Part shown: positions 21,851-56,462 of the stretch, in pieces | Position numbering within the stretch: the stretch's first letter is position 1 | Layout of the letters: each line of letters begins with the position of its first letter | DNA from: Bacteroides sp. | GTDB lineage: Bacteria > Bacteroidota > Bacteroidia > Bacteroidales > Muribaculaceae | Length of the DNA stretch: 64,000 bases | Direction: 5' to 3' | Assembly: GCA_014801955.1 (NCBI GenBank) | Contig: JAAVDE010000037.1 | Coordinates: 549 to 64,548 of the forward strand | Position numbers and translations under genes: made by a program | Notes under the pieces: model-generated | What the model saw: only the letters and a program-made list of their open reading frames with translations | Databases searched by the model: none | Told to the model about the DNA's origin: nothing

Positions 21851-22017
21851 AGGGTTATAAAATAATGTGTATGAAATTTACTATATGATGAACAATATGC
21901 TGCAAAGTTACGCATTTTAATTGAAAAACGTATGTTATAAAACATCTCCCATATCCCAATTTAACCACCTTTAACGGAGTATTCGACCTTTTGACCAACG
22001 ATAGCGCCATTTGACCC

Positions 22018-27539: not shown

Positions 27540-27571
27540 TTTGCATAATATAAATAAATGGCGTAACTTTG
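27540..27571 (+). promoter_or_regulatory. Strong consensus Bacteroidota promoter (TTTG-N20-TAACTTTG) with no adjacent ORF
   Basis: TTTG at 27540-27543 and TAACTTTG at 27564-27571. The next credible ATG is 27935, about 360 nt downstream. Confidence 0.6.
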
Positions 27572-27934
27572 CAGCACAAACCGCAACGCAGAAGCCCGGT
27601 AAGGGGTAAGCGGGCGGGTTGTAGACATATCGAAAAGCGTATACTTGCGCTCTTTCTTGACAAACGGAAATCTGGTAAATTTCAATCTTCGTCGAGAATG
27701 TGGCAAACAGTAGATGCAATGTGGATTTGTATACCTAACTGAGCGTGAACGCTGGTGCGTTGACGGTTAGTTACTGTATATATTTCGCGTGAGGCTTCTG
27801 CATGTTTGCTCGTTCAACGAAGATGGGCAATACCAGAGCCTCCGTTTGTGGAACGAGCAAAGGTAAAGGTCCTCGCGCCTTTCATTTATAATGAATAAAT
27901 ATCTTCGAAGGGGATCCGAAGATTCATCTCAATT

Positions 27935-30197: not shown

Positions 30198-30270
30198 GGC
30201 GATTTAGTGTAGTGGCCTAGCACGCCGCCCTCTCACGGCGGAAACCCGGGTTCGAGTCCCGGATTCGCTA
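30198..30270 (+). tRNA. tRNA-Glu (anticodon CTC)
   Basis: GGCGATT TA GTGT AGTGGCCTA GCAC G CCGCC CTCTCAC GGCGG AAAC CCGGG TTCGAGT CCCGG ATTCGCT A. It closely parallels the E. coli tRNA-Glu layout. There is one T-T mismatch in the acceptor stem. Confidence 0.85.
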
Positions 30271-30278
30271 CAGCAAAA

Positions 30279-32550: not shown

Positions 32551-34695
32551 TTAGCGCGGAAGAACTATGCGTTCGCCCAGGTAGCGGGCCAGTTCGGCGA
32601 TGATGGCGCGGATTCCCTGAAGCTCCTCGAGCGTTTGGCGGGCCGACGAGGGGTCGGCGGCCAGGGCGGCGCGCAGTTCCTTTTCGCGCCATTGGAGAAT
32701 GGCGATTTTCAGGCCGCAGGTTGCCCGGGGCACGCGGTTGCCTATCAGGTCGCGCTCGGGGGGGATGTGGGTGCCCTTGGTGTGGATTTTGCTCAGAACG
32801 TATTTTTCGGAGCCGAAAGCGGTTGCCAGGCGGCGAACGTCGTTGTCGGGGTCGGCGCCGAGAATCGTCGTGAGGAATCGCTCGGCCTCGTTGGCCAGGG
32901 TCATCTTGGCGGCTTCCTCGGCGGCCATTTCGGCCTCCTGCTCTTTGCGGCGGATTGAGTCAACGCTGCCTGCCGAGGCTATTTCCTCGGCGGCATCGGC
33001 CATGAAGCGCCGGCGCTCGGCCTCGGCGCGTTCGAGGGCGGCGGGAAGTTCGGCGCGCCAGGCTTCGGCGGCGTTTTGAACGGCAATGAACACCCGCTCC
33101 AGGTCGGGGTTGGTCAGGCGGATTTCGTCGTTGGCAAGGTCGCCGGCAACGTAGTCGATAACGCTCAGGTCGGTCATGTCGCCTTCGGCATCGACGACCT
33201 GACCCATTGTCAGCAGCCCATAGCGCGCGCAGAGCCTCACGACCTCCAGCTCCGGCGCCCGCAGGTAGGCGGCAATGTCGCCGGAGGTGCGGGTTGCGTT
33301 GCGCTTCGGTGCCGTCGGCTCAATGATTTCCGGGGTTTGGTCGGCCGGAGCCGAGGGGGGAGTGGCGGTGCGCTTGTCGGCGGCCTCGTTGGCGAACTTG
33401 GCAACCTGGAGGCGAACAATGTCCTCGTCCGTTTCCAGCAGGCGGGCACACTCTTTGATGTATTCGCTGCGGATAACCCGGTCGGGGATAACCGAGATGC
33501 TCCGCGCAATGCTGTTGATGACTCCGGCGCGTCCCACCGGGTCGTTGCTCTCGAGCGAGTCGAGCAGAATCCGCGTTTTGAAGCGGATGAAGTCAGTTTC
33601 GTTTTCCTTGAAATATTGCTCGATTTCCTCCAGGGTGTGGGTCTTGGAAAAAGAGTCGGGGTCGTCGCCGTCGGGCAGGAGCATGACCTTGATGTTCATG
33701 CCGTGGGCCAGGAGCATGTCGATTCCTCGCAGCGACGCTTTGATGCCGGCGGCGTCGGAGTCGTAGATAACGGTGACGTTCGGCGTGAAGCGATGAATCA
33801 GGGCAATCTGCCCTTCGGTCAGCGAGGTGCCCGACGAAGCCACTACGTTTTCCACCCCGCGCTGGCTCATTGAAATAACATCCATGTAGCCCTCGACCAG
33901 AATGCACTTGTCTTTCTTAACGATTTCGCGCTTGGCCTGGTAGAGGCCATAGAGCTCGTTGCTCTTATGGTAGATAAGGCTCTCCGGGGAGTTGACATAT
34001 TTGGCAACCTCTTTTGAGGTTTTCAGCGTTCGGCCGCCAAAGGCAATCACCTTGCCGCTGACCGAAAAGACCGGAAACATTACGCGTCCGCGGAAGCGGT
34101 CAACCAGCTCGCCGTGGTTGCGCTCGGCGCAGAGGCCGGTCGCCGTCAGCATTTCGCGGCCATAGCCCTTTGCCAGGGCTTCGGTGCTGAGCGCATTGTA
34201 GCGCTCCGGCGCGAAACCCAGGCGGAATCGCTTGATGGCCGCATCGCTCAGGCCGCGGTTGCGGAAATAGCTCAGGCCAATGCTGCGTCCCTCCTCGGAA
34301 TCGGTCAGCGTGCGCTCAAAAAACTGCAGGGCGAAATCATTGAGCGCCAACATGCTTTCGCGCTCCGTTGCGGCGGCACGCTCTTCGGGTGTCAGCTCGC
34401 GCTCCTTGATTTCGATGTTATATTTGTTTGCCAGCCACTTGAGAGCCTCAACGTAGCTCAGCTGCTCGTGTTCCATGATGAAGCCAACTGGCGTGCCGCC
34501 CTTGCCACACGAAAAACACTTGCAGATGCCACGCGCCTTGCTGACCGAAAACGACGGCGTGCGCTCATTATGGAACGGACATAGCCCCATATAGTTCGCG
34601 CCGCTGCGTTTCAGCTTCACGAAGTCACTGACAACGTCGACAATATCGGCGGTGTCAAGAATCTTTCTAACTGTTTCCTGGTCAATCAGAGCCAT
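32551..34695 (-). CDS. dnaG: DNA primase DnaG
   Basis: Zinc ribbon CPFHNERTPSFSVS...CFSCGKGG and a TOPRIM core (ILVEGYMDVI ... DSDAAG). Confidence 0.95.
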   Translation of the reverse strand: MALIDQETVRKILDTADIVDVVSDFVKLKRSGANYMGLCPFHNERTPSFSVSKARGICKCFSCGKGGTPVGFIMEHEQLSYVEALKWLANKYNIEIKERELTPEERAAATERESMLALNDFALQFFERTLTDSEEGRSIGLSYFRNRGLSDAAIKRFRLGFAPERYNALSTEALAKGYGREMLTATGLCAERNHGELVDRFRGRVMFPVFSVSGKVIAFGGRTLKTSKEVAKYVNSPESLIYHKSNELYGLYQAKREIVKKDKCILVEGYMDVISMSQRGVENVVASSGTSLTEGQIALIHRFTPNVTVIYDSDAAGIKASLRGIDMLLAHGMNIKVMLLPDGDDPDSFSKTHTLEEIEQYFKENETDFIRFKTRILLDSLESNDPVGRAGVINSIARSISVIPDRVIRSEYIKECARLLETDEDIVRLQVAKFANEAADKRTATPPSAPADQTPEIIEPTAPKRNATRTSGDIAAYLRAPELEVVRLCARYGLLTMGQVVDAEGDMTDLSVIDYVAGDLANDEIRLTNPDLERVFIAVQNAAEAWRAELPAALERAEAERRRFMADAAEEIASAGSVDSIRRKEQEAEMAAEEAAKMTLANEAERFLTTILGADPDNDVRRLATAFGSEKYVLSKIHTKGTHIPPERDLIGNRVPRATCGLKIAILQWREKELRAALAADPSSARQTLEELQGIRAIIAELARYLGERIVLPR

Positions 34696-34731
34696 CAGCC
34701 TAAACTCTCCCGGATATTTATTTTCGGATGT

Positions 34732-35241
34732 TTATTTTCTTCTTCGAGGTTGAGGTCCTTTGGGCGCCGCCGGCTCGTAGGCCTTCAGTCCCATATCACC
34801 GGTGAAGATTTCAACGGTGATATTATATGCTGCATAATATTTTGCCACTGCAACGATAAGTGCATCTCCAAACGATTGTCCGGCCAAGGCGGTTTCTTTC
34901 CATGCTGACAGCGTTTTCTTCAGAGCTTCAGAGTCTATTAAGCCTGATTGCTCAGTAAATGCCGCCCACGGAACGTTGCCGTCAATCGCATTTTCAATGT
35001 GTTCCACAAATGAGTTGACAACATCGTGTTTGTCTCCATGAGCCTGGGCAATGTGATTGCCGGTTTCGATGATAGATGTCAACGGCATAATAAGGGTAGA
35101 GCCGGCTTTGATTTCGGAGTCAATTTTTTGTTTGACTGAATCGAATGTCCATCTGTTGCCGTCGGGGCCGCATGTTTCTTTGCCGGGTACTCGTAGCCAG
35201 ACACACAGTATGCTCGTGTCGAGGATGATAGCCTTTCTCAT
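34732..35241 (-). CDS. PIN-like domain protein (putative nuclease), partner of the upstream ATPase
   Basis: Four acidic residues lie in canonical PIN order and spacing: D8 (AIILDTSIL), E59 (IIETGNH), D126 (FGDALIVAVA) and D149 (IFTGDMG). The ATG overlaps the ATPase TGA (ATGA). The region is low GC. Confidence 0.55.
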   Translation of the reverse strand: MRKAIILDTSILCVWLRVPGKETCGPDGNRWTFDSVKQKIDSEIKAGSTLIMPLTSIIETGNHIAQAHGDKHDVVNSFVEHIENAIDGNVPWAAFTEQSGLIDSEALKKTLSAWKETALAGQSFGDALIVAVAKYYAAYNITVEIFTGDMGLKAYEPAAPKGPQPRRRK

Positions 35242-36431
35242 TTTGTGTTATTTAAGAGCAGTCCTTTGGTCATCATGGCGCCGGGCGAGTAATTTGCCAG
35301 CAGTTTGAGAAGATCGGGAGCATCTTCCAGCAAATCTATTTCGCTGCTCCCTGTGAGTTCTGATCGCGACACATAGCTTATGAACGGAAGCATTTCCGGC
35401 CCAAGCGCATCAATAAGCACAGGATTGTGGGTCGTGCAGATGATGTCGATATTCTTTCTCGCACCCAAATCTTTTAATGCTATCGCTAATTCTCCGGCGC
35501 GTGATGGATGAAGCCCATTGTCAACTTCTTCAATAACCATGGTGGCTCCTTCCTTTGCTGATAACAGGGCTGCTACTATAGCGATAAACCGAAGAGTTCC
35601 GTCTGACATTGAGCGGGCGTCGAATTCGGAGATTTCTCCATCTATCCACTCCTCCGCGCAGTAGAGCATAGCGTCTGTCTTAAAGCGACCGACCGGTTCT
35701 GCCCATATTTTAATCAAATCTTTTTCCGGCAAGGGCTTGACGTAGTTGGTCAGCGTCTCTTCAAAGTTTTTTTTCTGTTCTTCGGGTAGTCCGGCAATCA
35801 TGCCGGCTATGTTTGAGCCATCGGAAGCAAGGTTATCTGCCAATGGACTGTAGGTGCGCATTTTCTCGGGTTTGGGGTCTAATACAAAAATAGACTTCAA
35901 CGAAGATGCAACAAGCTCTGCCTTATCTTTTATCTCTTTAATTACGTTCAGATTCGGAATCTGGGACAATATCGCTGTTTCGCGTTTCAGCGGCAGGCCC
36001 TTGCGCGGCCCCGCTTTGTCTTTAAGGAAACGGGCGATGATTTGGTTGTTGCCGGGAATGGCTTCGTCGGTTGAGTATAGAATCTTCTCTTTTCCGTTGG
36101 AGAACTTGACCGATAATCGTTCGTGGGTTAGCAGGAGCTCTTTATCGTCAAGAGTAAAAGAAAATTCGAAGGTAAATTCTTCTTTTCCGATAATGAGTTC
36201 AGCAGTTATACTTGCGTGGTCTGTCTGCCGCCTGATTATGCCCTCCGAGCCTCCTCTAATCGAAGACTCCGAGATGCGACAGCCACCGGCAATATCTGAT
36301 AAAAAAGAGAGTGCGTCAACGATATTCGACTTGCCGGCCGAATTTGCTCCGATAATAAAAGTCAACGAATCAACCCATAGTTGAGCCGATTCAAAGCTTT
36401 TCCAGTTTTTAAGAGTGAGGCATTTAATCAT
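35238..36431 (-). CDS. ABC-type (AAA_15/AAA_21-like) ATPase
   Basis: Walker A GANSAGKSN, signature MSDGTLR, Walker B MVIEEVDNGLHP and H-loop TTHNP. Length is 397 aa. Confidence 0.75.
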   Translation of the reverse strand: MIKCLTLKNWKSFESAQLWVDSLTFIIGANSAGKSNIVDALSFLSDIAGGCRISESSIRGGSEGIIRRQTDHASITAELIIGKEEFTFEFSFTLDDKELLLTHERLSVKFSNGKEKILYSTDEAIPGNNQIIARFLKDKAGPRKGLPLKRETAILSQIPNLNVIKEIKDKAELVASSLKSIFVLDPKPEKMRTYSPLADNLASDGSNIAGMIAGLPEEQKKNFEETLTNYVKPLPEKDLIKIWAEPVGRFKTDAMLYCAEEWIDGEISEFDARSMSDGTLRFIAIVAALLSAKEGATMVIEEVDNGLHPSRAGELAIALKDLGARKNIDIICTTHNPVLIDALGPEMLPFISYVSRSELTGSSEIDLLEDAPDLLKLLANYSPGAMMTKGLLLNNTK

Positions 36432-36450
36432 AAGTATGAAATTCGATACG

Positions 36451-36458
36451 CAAAGTTA
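36451..36458 (-). promoter_or_regulatory. -7 promoter box (TAACTTTG) for the ATPase/PIN pair
   Basis: Exact TAnnTTTG match, 19 nt upstream of ATG 36431. Confidence 0.55.
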
Positions 36459-36491
36459 CGACTTTTTCGGCAACTCTGCAAGTTGGGGGAG

Positions 36492-36851
36492 TCAGAGGTT
36501 GCGCAGGAGGGTGTAGAGGAGGGTGAGGAGCAGCAGGGTGTAGGCGGCAGCGGGCGAAAGGAGCAGGCGGCGAAGTCGGTGCAGGCGGGGGTGCTCGGCG
36601 GCGAAGGCGAGGAGTATCAGGGGAATGGCAACGAACAGGGCGGGATTGAAGGCCCAGGCTTCGGCGAGGTGGCCGTGGAGCAGGCTGTGGAGCGCACGCG
36701 CCGAGCCGCACCCCGGGCAGTCATAGCCGGTCAGCAGCTTAATCCAGCAGCGCGGATAGGGAAAGGGGCCGTTGACCGGGTCGAAGGCGTAGGTCGTTGC
36801 CGCAATGGCTGCCAGTATGGCTGCGGCGGCTATGAGCCTGAGCGTTTTCAT
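36492..36851 (-). CDS. DUF2752 domain-containing membrane protein
   Basis: CPGCGSARALHSLLHG motif plus TM helices. Length is 119 aa. Confidence 0.7.
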   Translation of the reverse strand: MKTLRLIAAAAILAAIAATTYAFDPVNGPFPYPRCWIKLLTGYDCPGCGSARALHSLLHGHLAEAWAFNPALFVAIPLILLAFAAEHPRLHRLRRLLLSPAAAYTLLLLTLLYTLLRNL

Positions 36852-42024: not shown

Positions 42025-42162
42025 CGCGATTTTATGATTTGATTATTTACGTAAATTCAGTCTTAGTGACTCTTACCGAGGCGCAAAGTTAGGTAAAAAT
42101 TTTCAAACCACCAAAATAATCTTGCATAATTCCAAAAATGTGCGTAACTTTGCACCCGAAAA

Positions 42163-46904: not shown

Positions 46905-46961
46905 GGCTGATTCTTTGGATGGATAGAAATTATTATTAGCGCAAAGTTACGAAAAAGTTTT

Positions 46962-56348: not shown

Positions 56349-56462
56349 ATCGGCTTCTTCTGATAATGTGTTGGCAGTTGAGTGAATTTGTGCGTGCAAA
56401 ATTAAGAAATTTCCATTGATTTTGCGTAACTTTGCAAGCAAATAAACCAATTTATCATTGCA

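Follow-up and report, generated by a model that had tools for sequence, protein, structure and literature searches.

The stretch of DNA analysed here, referred to throughout as the window, comprises 64,000 nt of Bacteroides sp. (family Muribaculaceae; GenBank assembly GCA_014801955.1, contig JAAVDE010000037.1, positions 549 to 64,548 of the forward strand) and carries, on its minus strand between a DUF2752 gene and dnaG, a two-gene cassette composed of gene A, coding for an ATP-binding cassette (ABC)-type ATPase, and gene B, coding for a small protein with a predicted PIN nuclease fold (Table 1). A preliminary description, made from the sequence alone, had presented the pair as a candidate defence or abortive-infection module and as possibly undescribed. 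The physical description of the locus stands: the ATG start of B (35241-35239) overlaps the TGA stop of A (35240-35238), confirming the ATGA coupling reported for this position, the cassette is AT-richer than its surroundings (46.5% GC compared with 57.7% and 59.7% in the 5-kb flanks), and the neighbours were correctly named, DUF2752 from its Pfam match and dnaG from local synteny. The claim that the pair is undescribed is not upheld. As judged from profile matches, it is a member of the catalogued candidate defence family PDC-M07. Protein A matches PDC-M07A (model PDLC04391, 5.6e-130, residues 1-394 against profile positions 1-403 of 412), as well as four more PDC-M07A models of PADLOC-DB v2 at 1e-76 to 1e-41, and protein B matches six PDC-M07B models and no other family of that database (PDLC04394, 5.4e-44, residues 1-158 against profile positions 1-151 of 154). 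Both matches are full length and the genes are adjacent, on the same strand and ordered A before B, as in PDC-M07, and at the family level the window pair is no different from other members. Payne, Hughes, Fineran and Jackson (bioRxiv 10.1101/2024.01.29.577857) enter PDC-M07 in their supplement as CAS_00050, FAM_00005>>FAM_01367, with the number 406, and chose it because its members embed in BREX, DISARM or type I restriction-modification (R-M) systems. The name that the pair receives is thus that of an untested candidate.

Protein A belongs to the AAA_15/AAA_21 group of ATPases, with Pfam matches to AAA_21 at 3.7e-32 and to AAA_15 at 8.3e-19. The complete ATPase motif set noted previously is present, and its key residues are conserved: in an alignment of 46 homologs with 46-79% identity, G28, N30, G33, K34, S35, N36, Q157, S276, G278, T279, E301, E302, D304, H308 and H335 are invariant, a set that extends over the Walker A, Q-loop, signature, Walker B and H-loop elements and includes the Q-loop residue. 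The AlphaFold2 model of A (predicted local distance difference test score, pLDDT, 91.2; predicted template-modelling score, pTM, 0.90) has the form of an ABC/SMC-type ATPase head without a coiled coil, in which the first insert is a beta-rich domain at about residues 72-149. Foldseek comparison of this model with the PDB retrieved PtuA from Septu and retron I-A complexes, Rad50/SMC heads and an OLD nuclease, with E-values of 1e-13 to 1e-11 and template-modelling (TM) scores of about 0.5.

The identity of protein B was less accessible from its sequence. The Pfam PIN profile (PF01850) scores 14.0 bits on B (E 0.079), below the 23.6-bit gathering cutoff, no match was found in NCBIfam, and searches of all PDB sequences, both by phmmer and with a 41-sequence profile, gave no match at E<=10. 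Assignment of B as a PIN protein therefore comes from structure prediction and Foldseek, as sequence-level annotation alone failed. From an alignment of 46 homologs AlphaFold2 gave a confident model (pLDDT 88.8, pTM 0.83), for which the top 14 Foldseek matches in the PDB are all VapC/FitB PIN toxins, with probabilities of 0.94-1.0 and target-normalised TM scores of 0.55-0.74. Named matches include the Mycobacterium tuberculosis VapBC complex 5x3t, VapC20, VapBC15, VapBC11, PAE0151 and FitB, while weaker fold matches include HARP and PRORP RNase P. The four acidic residues proposed previously as a PIN active site, D8, E59, D126 and D149, are all invariant in 46 close homologs; among 41 diverse representatives (27-50% identity to B), D8, E59 and D126 remain invariant and D149 is retained in at least 90%. 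In the sequence alignment, this D-E-D-D set is in the canonical PIN order. Combined, predicted fold and conservation support a PIN/VapC-like fold with a conserved D-E-D-D set, and the earlier reading of the small protein is in this respect corroborated by the comparison that had been proposed for it. The PIN fold does not account for two further conserved features, a loop at residues 16-32, near which the closer homologs all keep C13 and C24, and the basic P-R-R-R C-terminal tail, which is conserved across the B family including distant members, R166 being kept in at least 90% of the diverse representatives. The tail of B recalls VapB, whose C-terminus contains Arg and sits in the active site of VapC.

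Table 1. Features of the A-B cassette and its immediate surroundings, in window coordinates
Feature	Position	Strand	Details
Gene A	35238..36431	minus	397 aa; ABC/SMC-type ATPase, AAA_15/AAA_21 group; PADLOC PDC-M07A
Gene B	34732..35241	minus	169 aa; predicted VapC-like PIN-fold protein; PADLOC PDC-M07B; presumed RNase effector
ATGA start/stop overlap of A and B (translational coupling)	35238-35241	minus	direct sequence reading
Walker A / P-loop of A, GANSAGKSN	36324..36350	minus	residues 28-36; G28, N30, G33, K34, S35, N36 invariant
ABC signature-like motif of A, MSDGTLR	35589..35609	minus	residues 275-281; M275, S276, G278, T279, L280, R281 invariant
Walker B / D-loop of A, MVIEEVDNGLHP	35505..35540	minus	residues 298-309; E301, E302, D304, G306, H308, P309 invariant
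H-loop of A, TTHNP	35421..35435	minus	residues 333-337; T334, H335, P337 invariant
Acidic tetrad of B	D8 35218-35220; E59 35065-35067; D126 34864-34866; D149 34795-34797	minus
Basic C-terminal tail of B, P-R-R-R-K	34735..34749	minus	residues 165-169; P165, R166, R167 invariant in close homologs
Allele-specific insert with A and B	34711..36479	minus	1,769 bp, 46.5% GC; BLASTN against L089
Promoter-like 17-mer AAAAGTCGTAACTTTGC holding the Bacteroidota -7 box TAACTTTG	36450..36466	minus	identical to L089 5651-5667
DUF2752 gene, upstream flank (context)	36492..36851	minus	Pfam PF10825, 2.6e-20
dnaG, primase (context)	32551..34695	minus	starts 36 nt downstream of B

The association between A and B is maintained across the family. 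A scan of 185,579 species genomes yielded 80 loci distributed over at least 7 phyla (Bacteroidota, Cyanobacteriota, Alpha-, Beta- and Gammaproteobacteria, Acidobacteriota, Firmicutes, Myxococcota and Verrucomicrobiota), and in 79 of these an A homolog is located directly upstream of B on the same strand, the sole exception being cut by the end of its contig. At the 71 junctions which could be scored, the two genes overlap by 1-23 nt in 42 and are separated by a gap of 1-12 nt in 26; an overlap, or a gap no greater than 12 nt, at 68 of 71 junctions indicates that translational coupling is a trait of the family. Identity of the A and B homologs to the respective window proteins co-varies (Pearson 0.90, Spearman 0.63, n=48 loci), and 41 of 44 cassettes have a lower GC content than their flanks (mean difference 6.6 points). 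Co-variation of the two proteins and low GC fit a unit which is co-inherited and moves horizontally, and the phyletic spread of the pair is patchy. The B family is large, a search of 5.8 billion proteins having returned 1,596 members at E<=1e-3; at 50% clustering, 404 representatives were obtained. Several cyanobacterial loci (L019, L022, L042, L055 and L064) seem to hold the pair at a common site, where it is preceded by genes of ~368 and ~156 aa and followed by one of ~860-884 aa, and the pooled Pfam counts of neighbours (NUDIX 6, AI-2E transporter 4, MutS 6) suggest a NUDIX/AI-2E plus mutS setting in cyanobacteria. This shared site suggests that the pair was either retained vertically in the lineage or inserts there by preference.

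Comparison with related genomes indicates that the pair is an accessory insertion rather than a core locus, as it is absent from a near-identical strain and DUF2752 directly adjoins dnaG in more distant relatives. A protein identical to B is encoded by at least 24 contigs, apparently of one uncultured Bacteroidales/Muribaculaceae-like species, on which the gene order DUF3467, cysS, helicase, pfkB, DUF2752, A, B, dnaG, S9 peptidase is constant. A 108-kb contig, L089, lacks the pair although its DUF2752 protein is 99% identical. BLASTN alignment places L089 2352-5372 opposite window 39500-36480 (98.2%) and L089 5690-8399 opposite window 34710-32001 (98.9%), so that the 1,769 bp at window 34711-36479 are replaced in L089 by an unrelated 317 bp (L089 5373-5689). 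In the distant relatives L094 and L097, DUF2752 abuts dnaG with spacings of -13 and +15 nt, respectively. In a presence/absence comparison of the kind suggested in the preliminary description, the pair is thus missing between DUF2752 and dnaG in L089, L094 and L097, and the two-gene, low-GC insert beside dnaG is indeed strain-variable, which supports horizontal acquisition. A conserved core locus is ruled out by the same evidence. This bears equally on the proposal that the pair has a housekeeping or replication-linked role tied to dnaG, for example in RNA primer or transcript processing. Such a role would agree with the location of the pair directly upstream of dnaG, probably on the same transcript, and with the occurrence of PIN domains in RNA processing, HARP and PRORP RNase P being among the weaker fold matches of B. 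It is largely refuted by the pair-less allele and is further opposed by the occurrence of the pair at unrelated sites elsewhere, for example between NUDIX and MutS genes in cyanobacteria, by its patchy phyletic spread and by its GC content below that of the host flanks. We therefore consider this proposal extremely improbable.

The boundaries of the insert at 34711 and 36479 are not bracketed by terminal direct or inverted repeats, the nearest tRNA gene, tRNA-Glu at 30198-30271, is 4.4 kb away, and none of the genes called beside the insert encodes an integrase. Among 50,697 phage records no match to B was found, and plasmid records gave a single one, on a non-mobilizable 167-kb replicon of Segatella copri. 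Together with the missing integrase, these results argue against carriage of the pair by a phage, prophage or plasmid. At 34711-34738, where the insert ends on its dnaG side, a 14-nt tandem duplication, CGGATATTTATTTT / CGGATGTTTATTTT (plus strand), coincides exactly with the boundary and includes the stop codon of B; it may be a recombination footprint. The alternative 317-bp allele of L089 has features of its own, in that a strong hairpin and a run of seven T residues come after a TATATTTGCAG promoter-like box. Folded as RNA, L089 5438-5530 has a free energy of -33.4 kcal/mol (z = -5.3) and the region looks like a small-RNA gene; an Rfam search of the 317-bp allele returned no family.

The neighbourhood of dnaG differs between related strains in other respects. 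In L094 (1-4882) and L095, whose DUF2752 protein is 57% identical, an MmeI/Eco57I-type R-M gene and an AbiEi/AbiEii pair are found directly upstream of DUF2752-dnaG, and HicAB (L085) and HigB/helix-turn-helix (L097) genes are located just past the S9 peptidase gene. The dnaG neighbourhood thus seems to repeatedly collect accessory toxin-antitoxin (TA) and defence genes.

The insert also affects how transcription of dnaG is likely to proceed. The preliminary description had given the pair its own promoter, a TAACTTTG box at 36451-36458 on the minus strand. The box is present, 20 nt before the ATG of A, but it is probably not the pair's own, since the 17-mer which contains it, AAAAGTCGTAACTTTGC, also precedes dnaG in the strain without the pair, 38 nt upstream of the gene in L089. 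The 17-mer is the only sequence common to the variable segments of both alleles. It occurs once in exact form in the window, the nearest other sites carrying 2 mismatches, and it is found in none of the related Bacteroidota cassettes at other sites, in most of which a TAnnTTTG box is located upstream of A. On the minus strand no TAnnTTTG box was detected in B or in the 36-nt spacer between B and dnaG, nor was a terminator-like site detected after B. AAAAGTCGTAACTTTGC thus probably belongs to dnaG as its resident promoter and at present serves A-B ahead of dnaG, and a promoter brought in by the cassette is disfavoured, as the 17-mer recurs upstream of dnaG in the pair-less allele and in none of the other Bacteroidota cassettes. 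With the cassette located between the resident promoter and its gene, transcription of dnaG would pass through A and B, probably as one transcript in this strain. Against a resident promoter, 11 of the 17 bases of AAAAGTCGTAACTTTGC (CGTAACTTTGC) are the general promoter consensus of the genome, and the identity may be convergent; TANNTTTG occurs at 49 sites in the window compared with 23.5 expected from shuffles. Promoter-like boxes throughout the window share CGTAACTTTGC(A/G), usually after an A/T-rich stretch, for example at 21902-21918, 27556-27572, 42145-42152, 46942-46949 and 56427-56434.

Defence genes constitute a minority of the neighbours of the pair. For 64 non-redundant loci, classification covered the two closest genes per side that encode at least 100 aa, giving 115 upstream and 113 downstream neighbours. 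PADLOC identified 2 PglX/type IIG, 4 PDC-S07 and 2 MkoA-like genes upstream, and 5 HEC-01A and 4 HEC-01B genes downstream. The window itself is flanked by housekeeping genes and not by a defence island, and most of the 64 loci are likewise solitary among housekeeping genes (Pfam: NUDIX 6, MutS 6, transporters and biosynthetic enzymes). The defence-island setting against which the pair had been considered is thus not found, and a classic defence island is ruled out for the window and for most of the loci. According to the text of the source paper, its authors remark that candidates derived from embedding associate less with other systems than do those derived from islands (bioRxiv 10.1101/2024.01.29.577857). 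HEC-01A ATPases or HEC-01B proteins (TOPRIM/DUF4276) are encoded downstream of the pair in L059 (13153-15023), L053, L060, L069 and L072; a few loci therefore hold two ATPase-nuclease modules with related ATPases in tandem, and FAM_00005, the ATPase family of A, is listed in the source paper as shared with HEC-01 (bioRxiv 10.1101/2024.01.29.577857).

Embedding within defence systems does nevertheless occur. In L059, from Desulfosporosinus, the order is PglX, MkoC-like helicase, A-B, PglZ, HEC-01A, HEC-01B; in L029 the pair is situated between an SNF2/HKD helicase and a type IIG enzyme, and in L032 it is followed by type I HsdR. This occasional embedding matches the manner in which PDC-M07 was found, within BREX, DISARM or type I R-M systems. 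It also raises the alternative that the pair is an auxiliary or back-up effector which needs a DNA-modification system (BREX, type I or IIG R-M), firing for example when a phage inhibits that system, so that the window copy would be orphaned or would aid a distant system. Modules of OLD-ABC ATPase and nuclease have been read as a back-up layer of BREX (PMC12839542), and PARIS, another ATPase-nuclease system, is triggered by the anti-restriction protein Ocr (PMC11464382), both of which agree with this alternative, as do the embedding on which the discovery of PDC-M07 was based and the three loci just described. At most of the 64 loci, however, the closest neighbours (two per side) include no R-M or BREX gene, the window flanks contain none, and HEC-03 and PARIS function in heterologous hosts as stand-alone two-gene systems. 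A dependent, back-up role is accordingly considered very unlikely.

The architecture of the pair has precedents. It had been suggested that the combination of an ABC ATPase with a PIN protein is absent from named systems, and this does not hold. HEC-03 is described in the source paper as an ABC ATPase with a VapC-like PIN protein, validated against phages and requiring both genes (bioRxiv 10.1101/2024.01.29.577857), and in BREX loci, according to a 2026 study of their diversity, OLD-type ABC ATPases are paired with HNH, PD-(D/E)xK or PIN endoRNases which replace TOPRIM (PMC12839542). The placement of the pair in the broader class of ABC ATPase plus nuclease systems is, by comparison, well founded on the ABC ATPase fold of A, the predicted PIN fold of B and their strict linkage. 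HEC-03 has the same two-gene architecture as the window pair, an ABC ATPase and a VapC-like PIN protein, but at E<=1 B is not matched by any HEC-03B model, and HEC-03A models are missing from the 25 best matches of A (E<=2.2e-12 throughout). As B matches no HEC-03B model, PDC-M07 is a separate sequence family with the same architecture. A literature search found no mechanistic follow-up of HEC-03.

Mechanistic precedent is provided by PARIS, in which a hexamer of AriA sequesters AriB and ATP-dependent detection of a phage protein releases AriB, leading to cleavage of tRNA-Lys (PMC11464382). The window pair resembles PARIS in its AAA_15/21 ATPase and in what would be a two-gene design of sensor and RNA nuclease; AriA models do match A (2.3e-33 and 1.1e-20), but much more weakly than the PDC-M07A and HEC-01A models do. 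It differs in the effector, which in PARIS is the DUF4435/TOPRIM protein AriB and here is a PIN protein matching no AriB model, in the size of the ATPase (about 55 kDa for AriA, 397 aa for A), and in mobility, as PARIS is often borne by phages or satellites whereas B has no counterpart in the phage records searched. Septu and retron type I-A supply the closest structural matches of A, namely PtuA chains (E 1e-13), and Septu is also an ATPase-nuclease complex. However, PtuB is an HNH protein and B a PIN protein, the matched PtuA chains extend to 550 residues compared with 397, the TM score is only about 0.5, and the NCBIfam PtuA model matches A weakly, with 33 bits against a cutoff of 500. Menshen (NsnABC) likewise combines an ABC ATPase with a protein having a PIN-like domain (PMC12065111), and its NsnB model matches A weakly at 2.4e-18. 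Menshen is distinguished by its three genes and by a PIN-like domain which lacks D-E-D-D and is fused to a BECR RNase (PMC12065111), whereas the window pair has two genes, an intact PIN tetrad and no NsnA.

VapBC systems resemble the pair through B, whose predicted fold and acidic tetrad are similar to those of VapC/FitB toxins, and this similarity underlies a second alternative, that the pair is a TA or addiction module with no dedicated anti-phage role. B would then be a VapC-like toxin and the ATPase a type II/IV-like neutraliser, with selfish or post-segregational persistence being reinforced by a position in the transcription path of the essential dnaG. In addition to the fold and active-site residues of B, the tight coupling of A and B, the occurrence of the pair mostly alone among housekeeping genes, the presence of classic TA pairs in the same neighbourhoods of related strains (HicAB in L085, HigB/helix-turn-helix in L097, AbiEi/AbiEii in L094) and the location of the cassette between the probable dnaG promoter and dnaG are all consistent with this alternative. 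The gene order and partner are nevertheless unlike those of VapBC: no small, DNA-binding, VapB-like antitoxin gene is present, the upstream partner being a 397-aa ABC ATPase, and B itself is 169 aa in length compared with about 130-140, with the extra conserved loop at residues 16-32, the basic tail and a Pfam PIN score below cutoff. The full conservation of catalytic motifs in an ATPase of this size argues for sensing or regulation that consumes energy and against simple stoichiometric neutralisation, and ATPases of the same class are the sensors in PARIS, Septu and HEC systems. The absence of phage matches and the one non-mobilizable plasmid record also indicate that plasmid addiction is not the usual niche of B. 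A TA module without anti-phage function is therefore considered unlikely, and TA and abortive-infection roles are not mutually exclusive.

The interpretation we favour, which is probable but well short of certain, is that the pair is a PDC-M07 member acting in a manner similar to PARIS, Septu and HEC-03, with an ATPase sensor that restrains and then releases a PIN RNase, thereby aborting infection. VapC toxins cut tRNA or rRNA. By analogy, translational coupling would result in A and B being made in fixed proportion, and the two proteins would assemble into a complex, with the activity of the PIN nuclease suppressed by the ATPase. The ATPase would then detect a phage-derived protein or nucleic-acid cue in an ATP-dependent manner, detection would release or activate the PIN domain, and cleavage of an essential host or phage RNA, possibly tRNA or rRNA, would stop translation and abort the infection. 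Complex formation, sensing, the RNA target and the anti-phage function itself are the steps which we infer from this analogy.

Several points weigh against this interpretation. The Foldseek E-values of B are modest, the best being 4e-3, though the ranking is uniformly PIN. The precedent provided by HEC-03 is a matter of architecture rather than of demonstrated homology, and the housekeeping flanks of the window and the solitary position of most loci, described above, are not those of a defence island. PDC-M07 is one of 145 untested candidates in the source paper (bioRxiv 10.1101/2024.01.29.577857), whose text and matching supplementary entries give no fold, function or experiment for the PDC-M07 B protein, and a literature search found no paper naming or testing PDC-M07 beyond that listing. 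Not every such candidate has proved active: PDC-M63 and PDC-S04 were inactive when tested (PMC12409345), and only 4 of 8 candidates were active in another set of tests (PMC12881386).

A more specific proposal, which we consider quite unlikely, is that the pair represents a distinct form of ATPase-gated RNase immunity. In this proposal the PRRR tail would function as a built-in plug or tether, comparable to the C-terminus of VapB, which the compact, coiled-coil-less ATPase would remove upon infection, and expression of dnaG in this strain would be coupled to the defence operon, either stabilising the cassette or linking replication to immunity.

With respect to its broader meaning, the analysis does not reveal a new kind of system, and its main value is in correcting the claim of novelty. 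Useful, and possibly new, are the fold assignment and catalytic residues of PDC-M07B, its conserved basic tail, the pair of carrier and non-carrier strains, and the position of the cassette in a probable dnaG transcription unit. Together these supply a basis for the design of tests, namely the predicted fold of the uncharacterised B protein, the residues to mutate, and near-identical strains with and without the pair. If PDC-M07 is active, it would constitute a second, sequence-unrelated ATPase plus PIN lineage among defence systems with ABC-ATPase sensors, one which is widespread and also abundant in gut Bacteroidales, a group with few defence systems tested so far.

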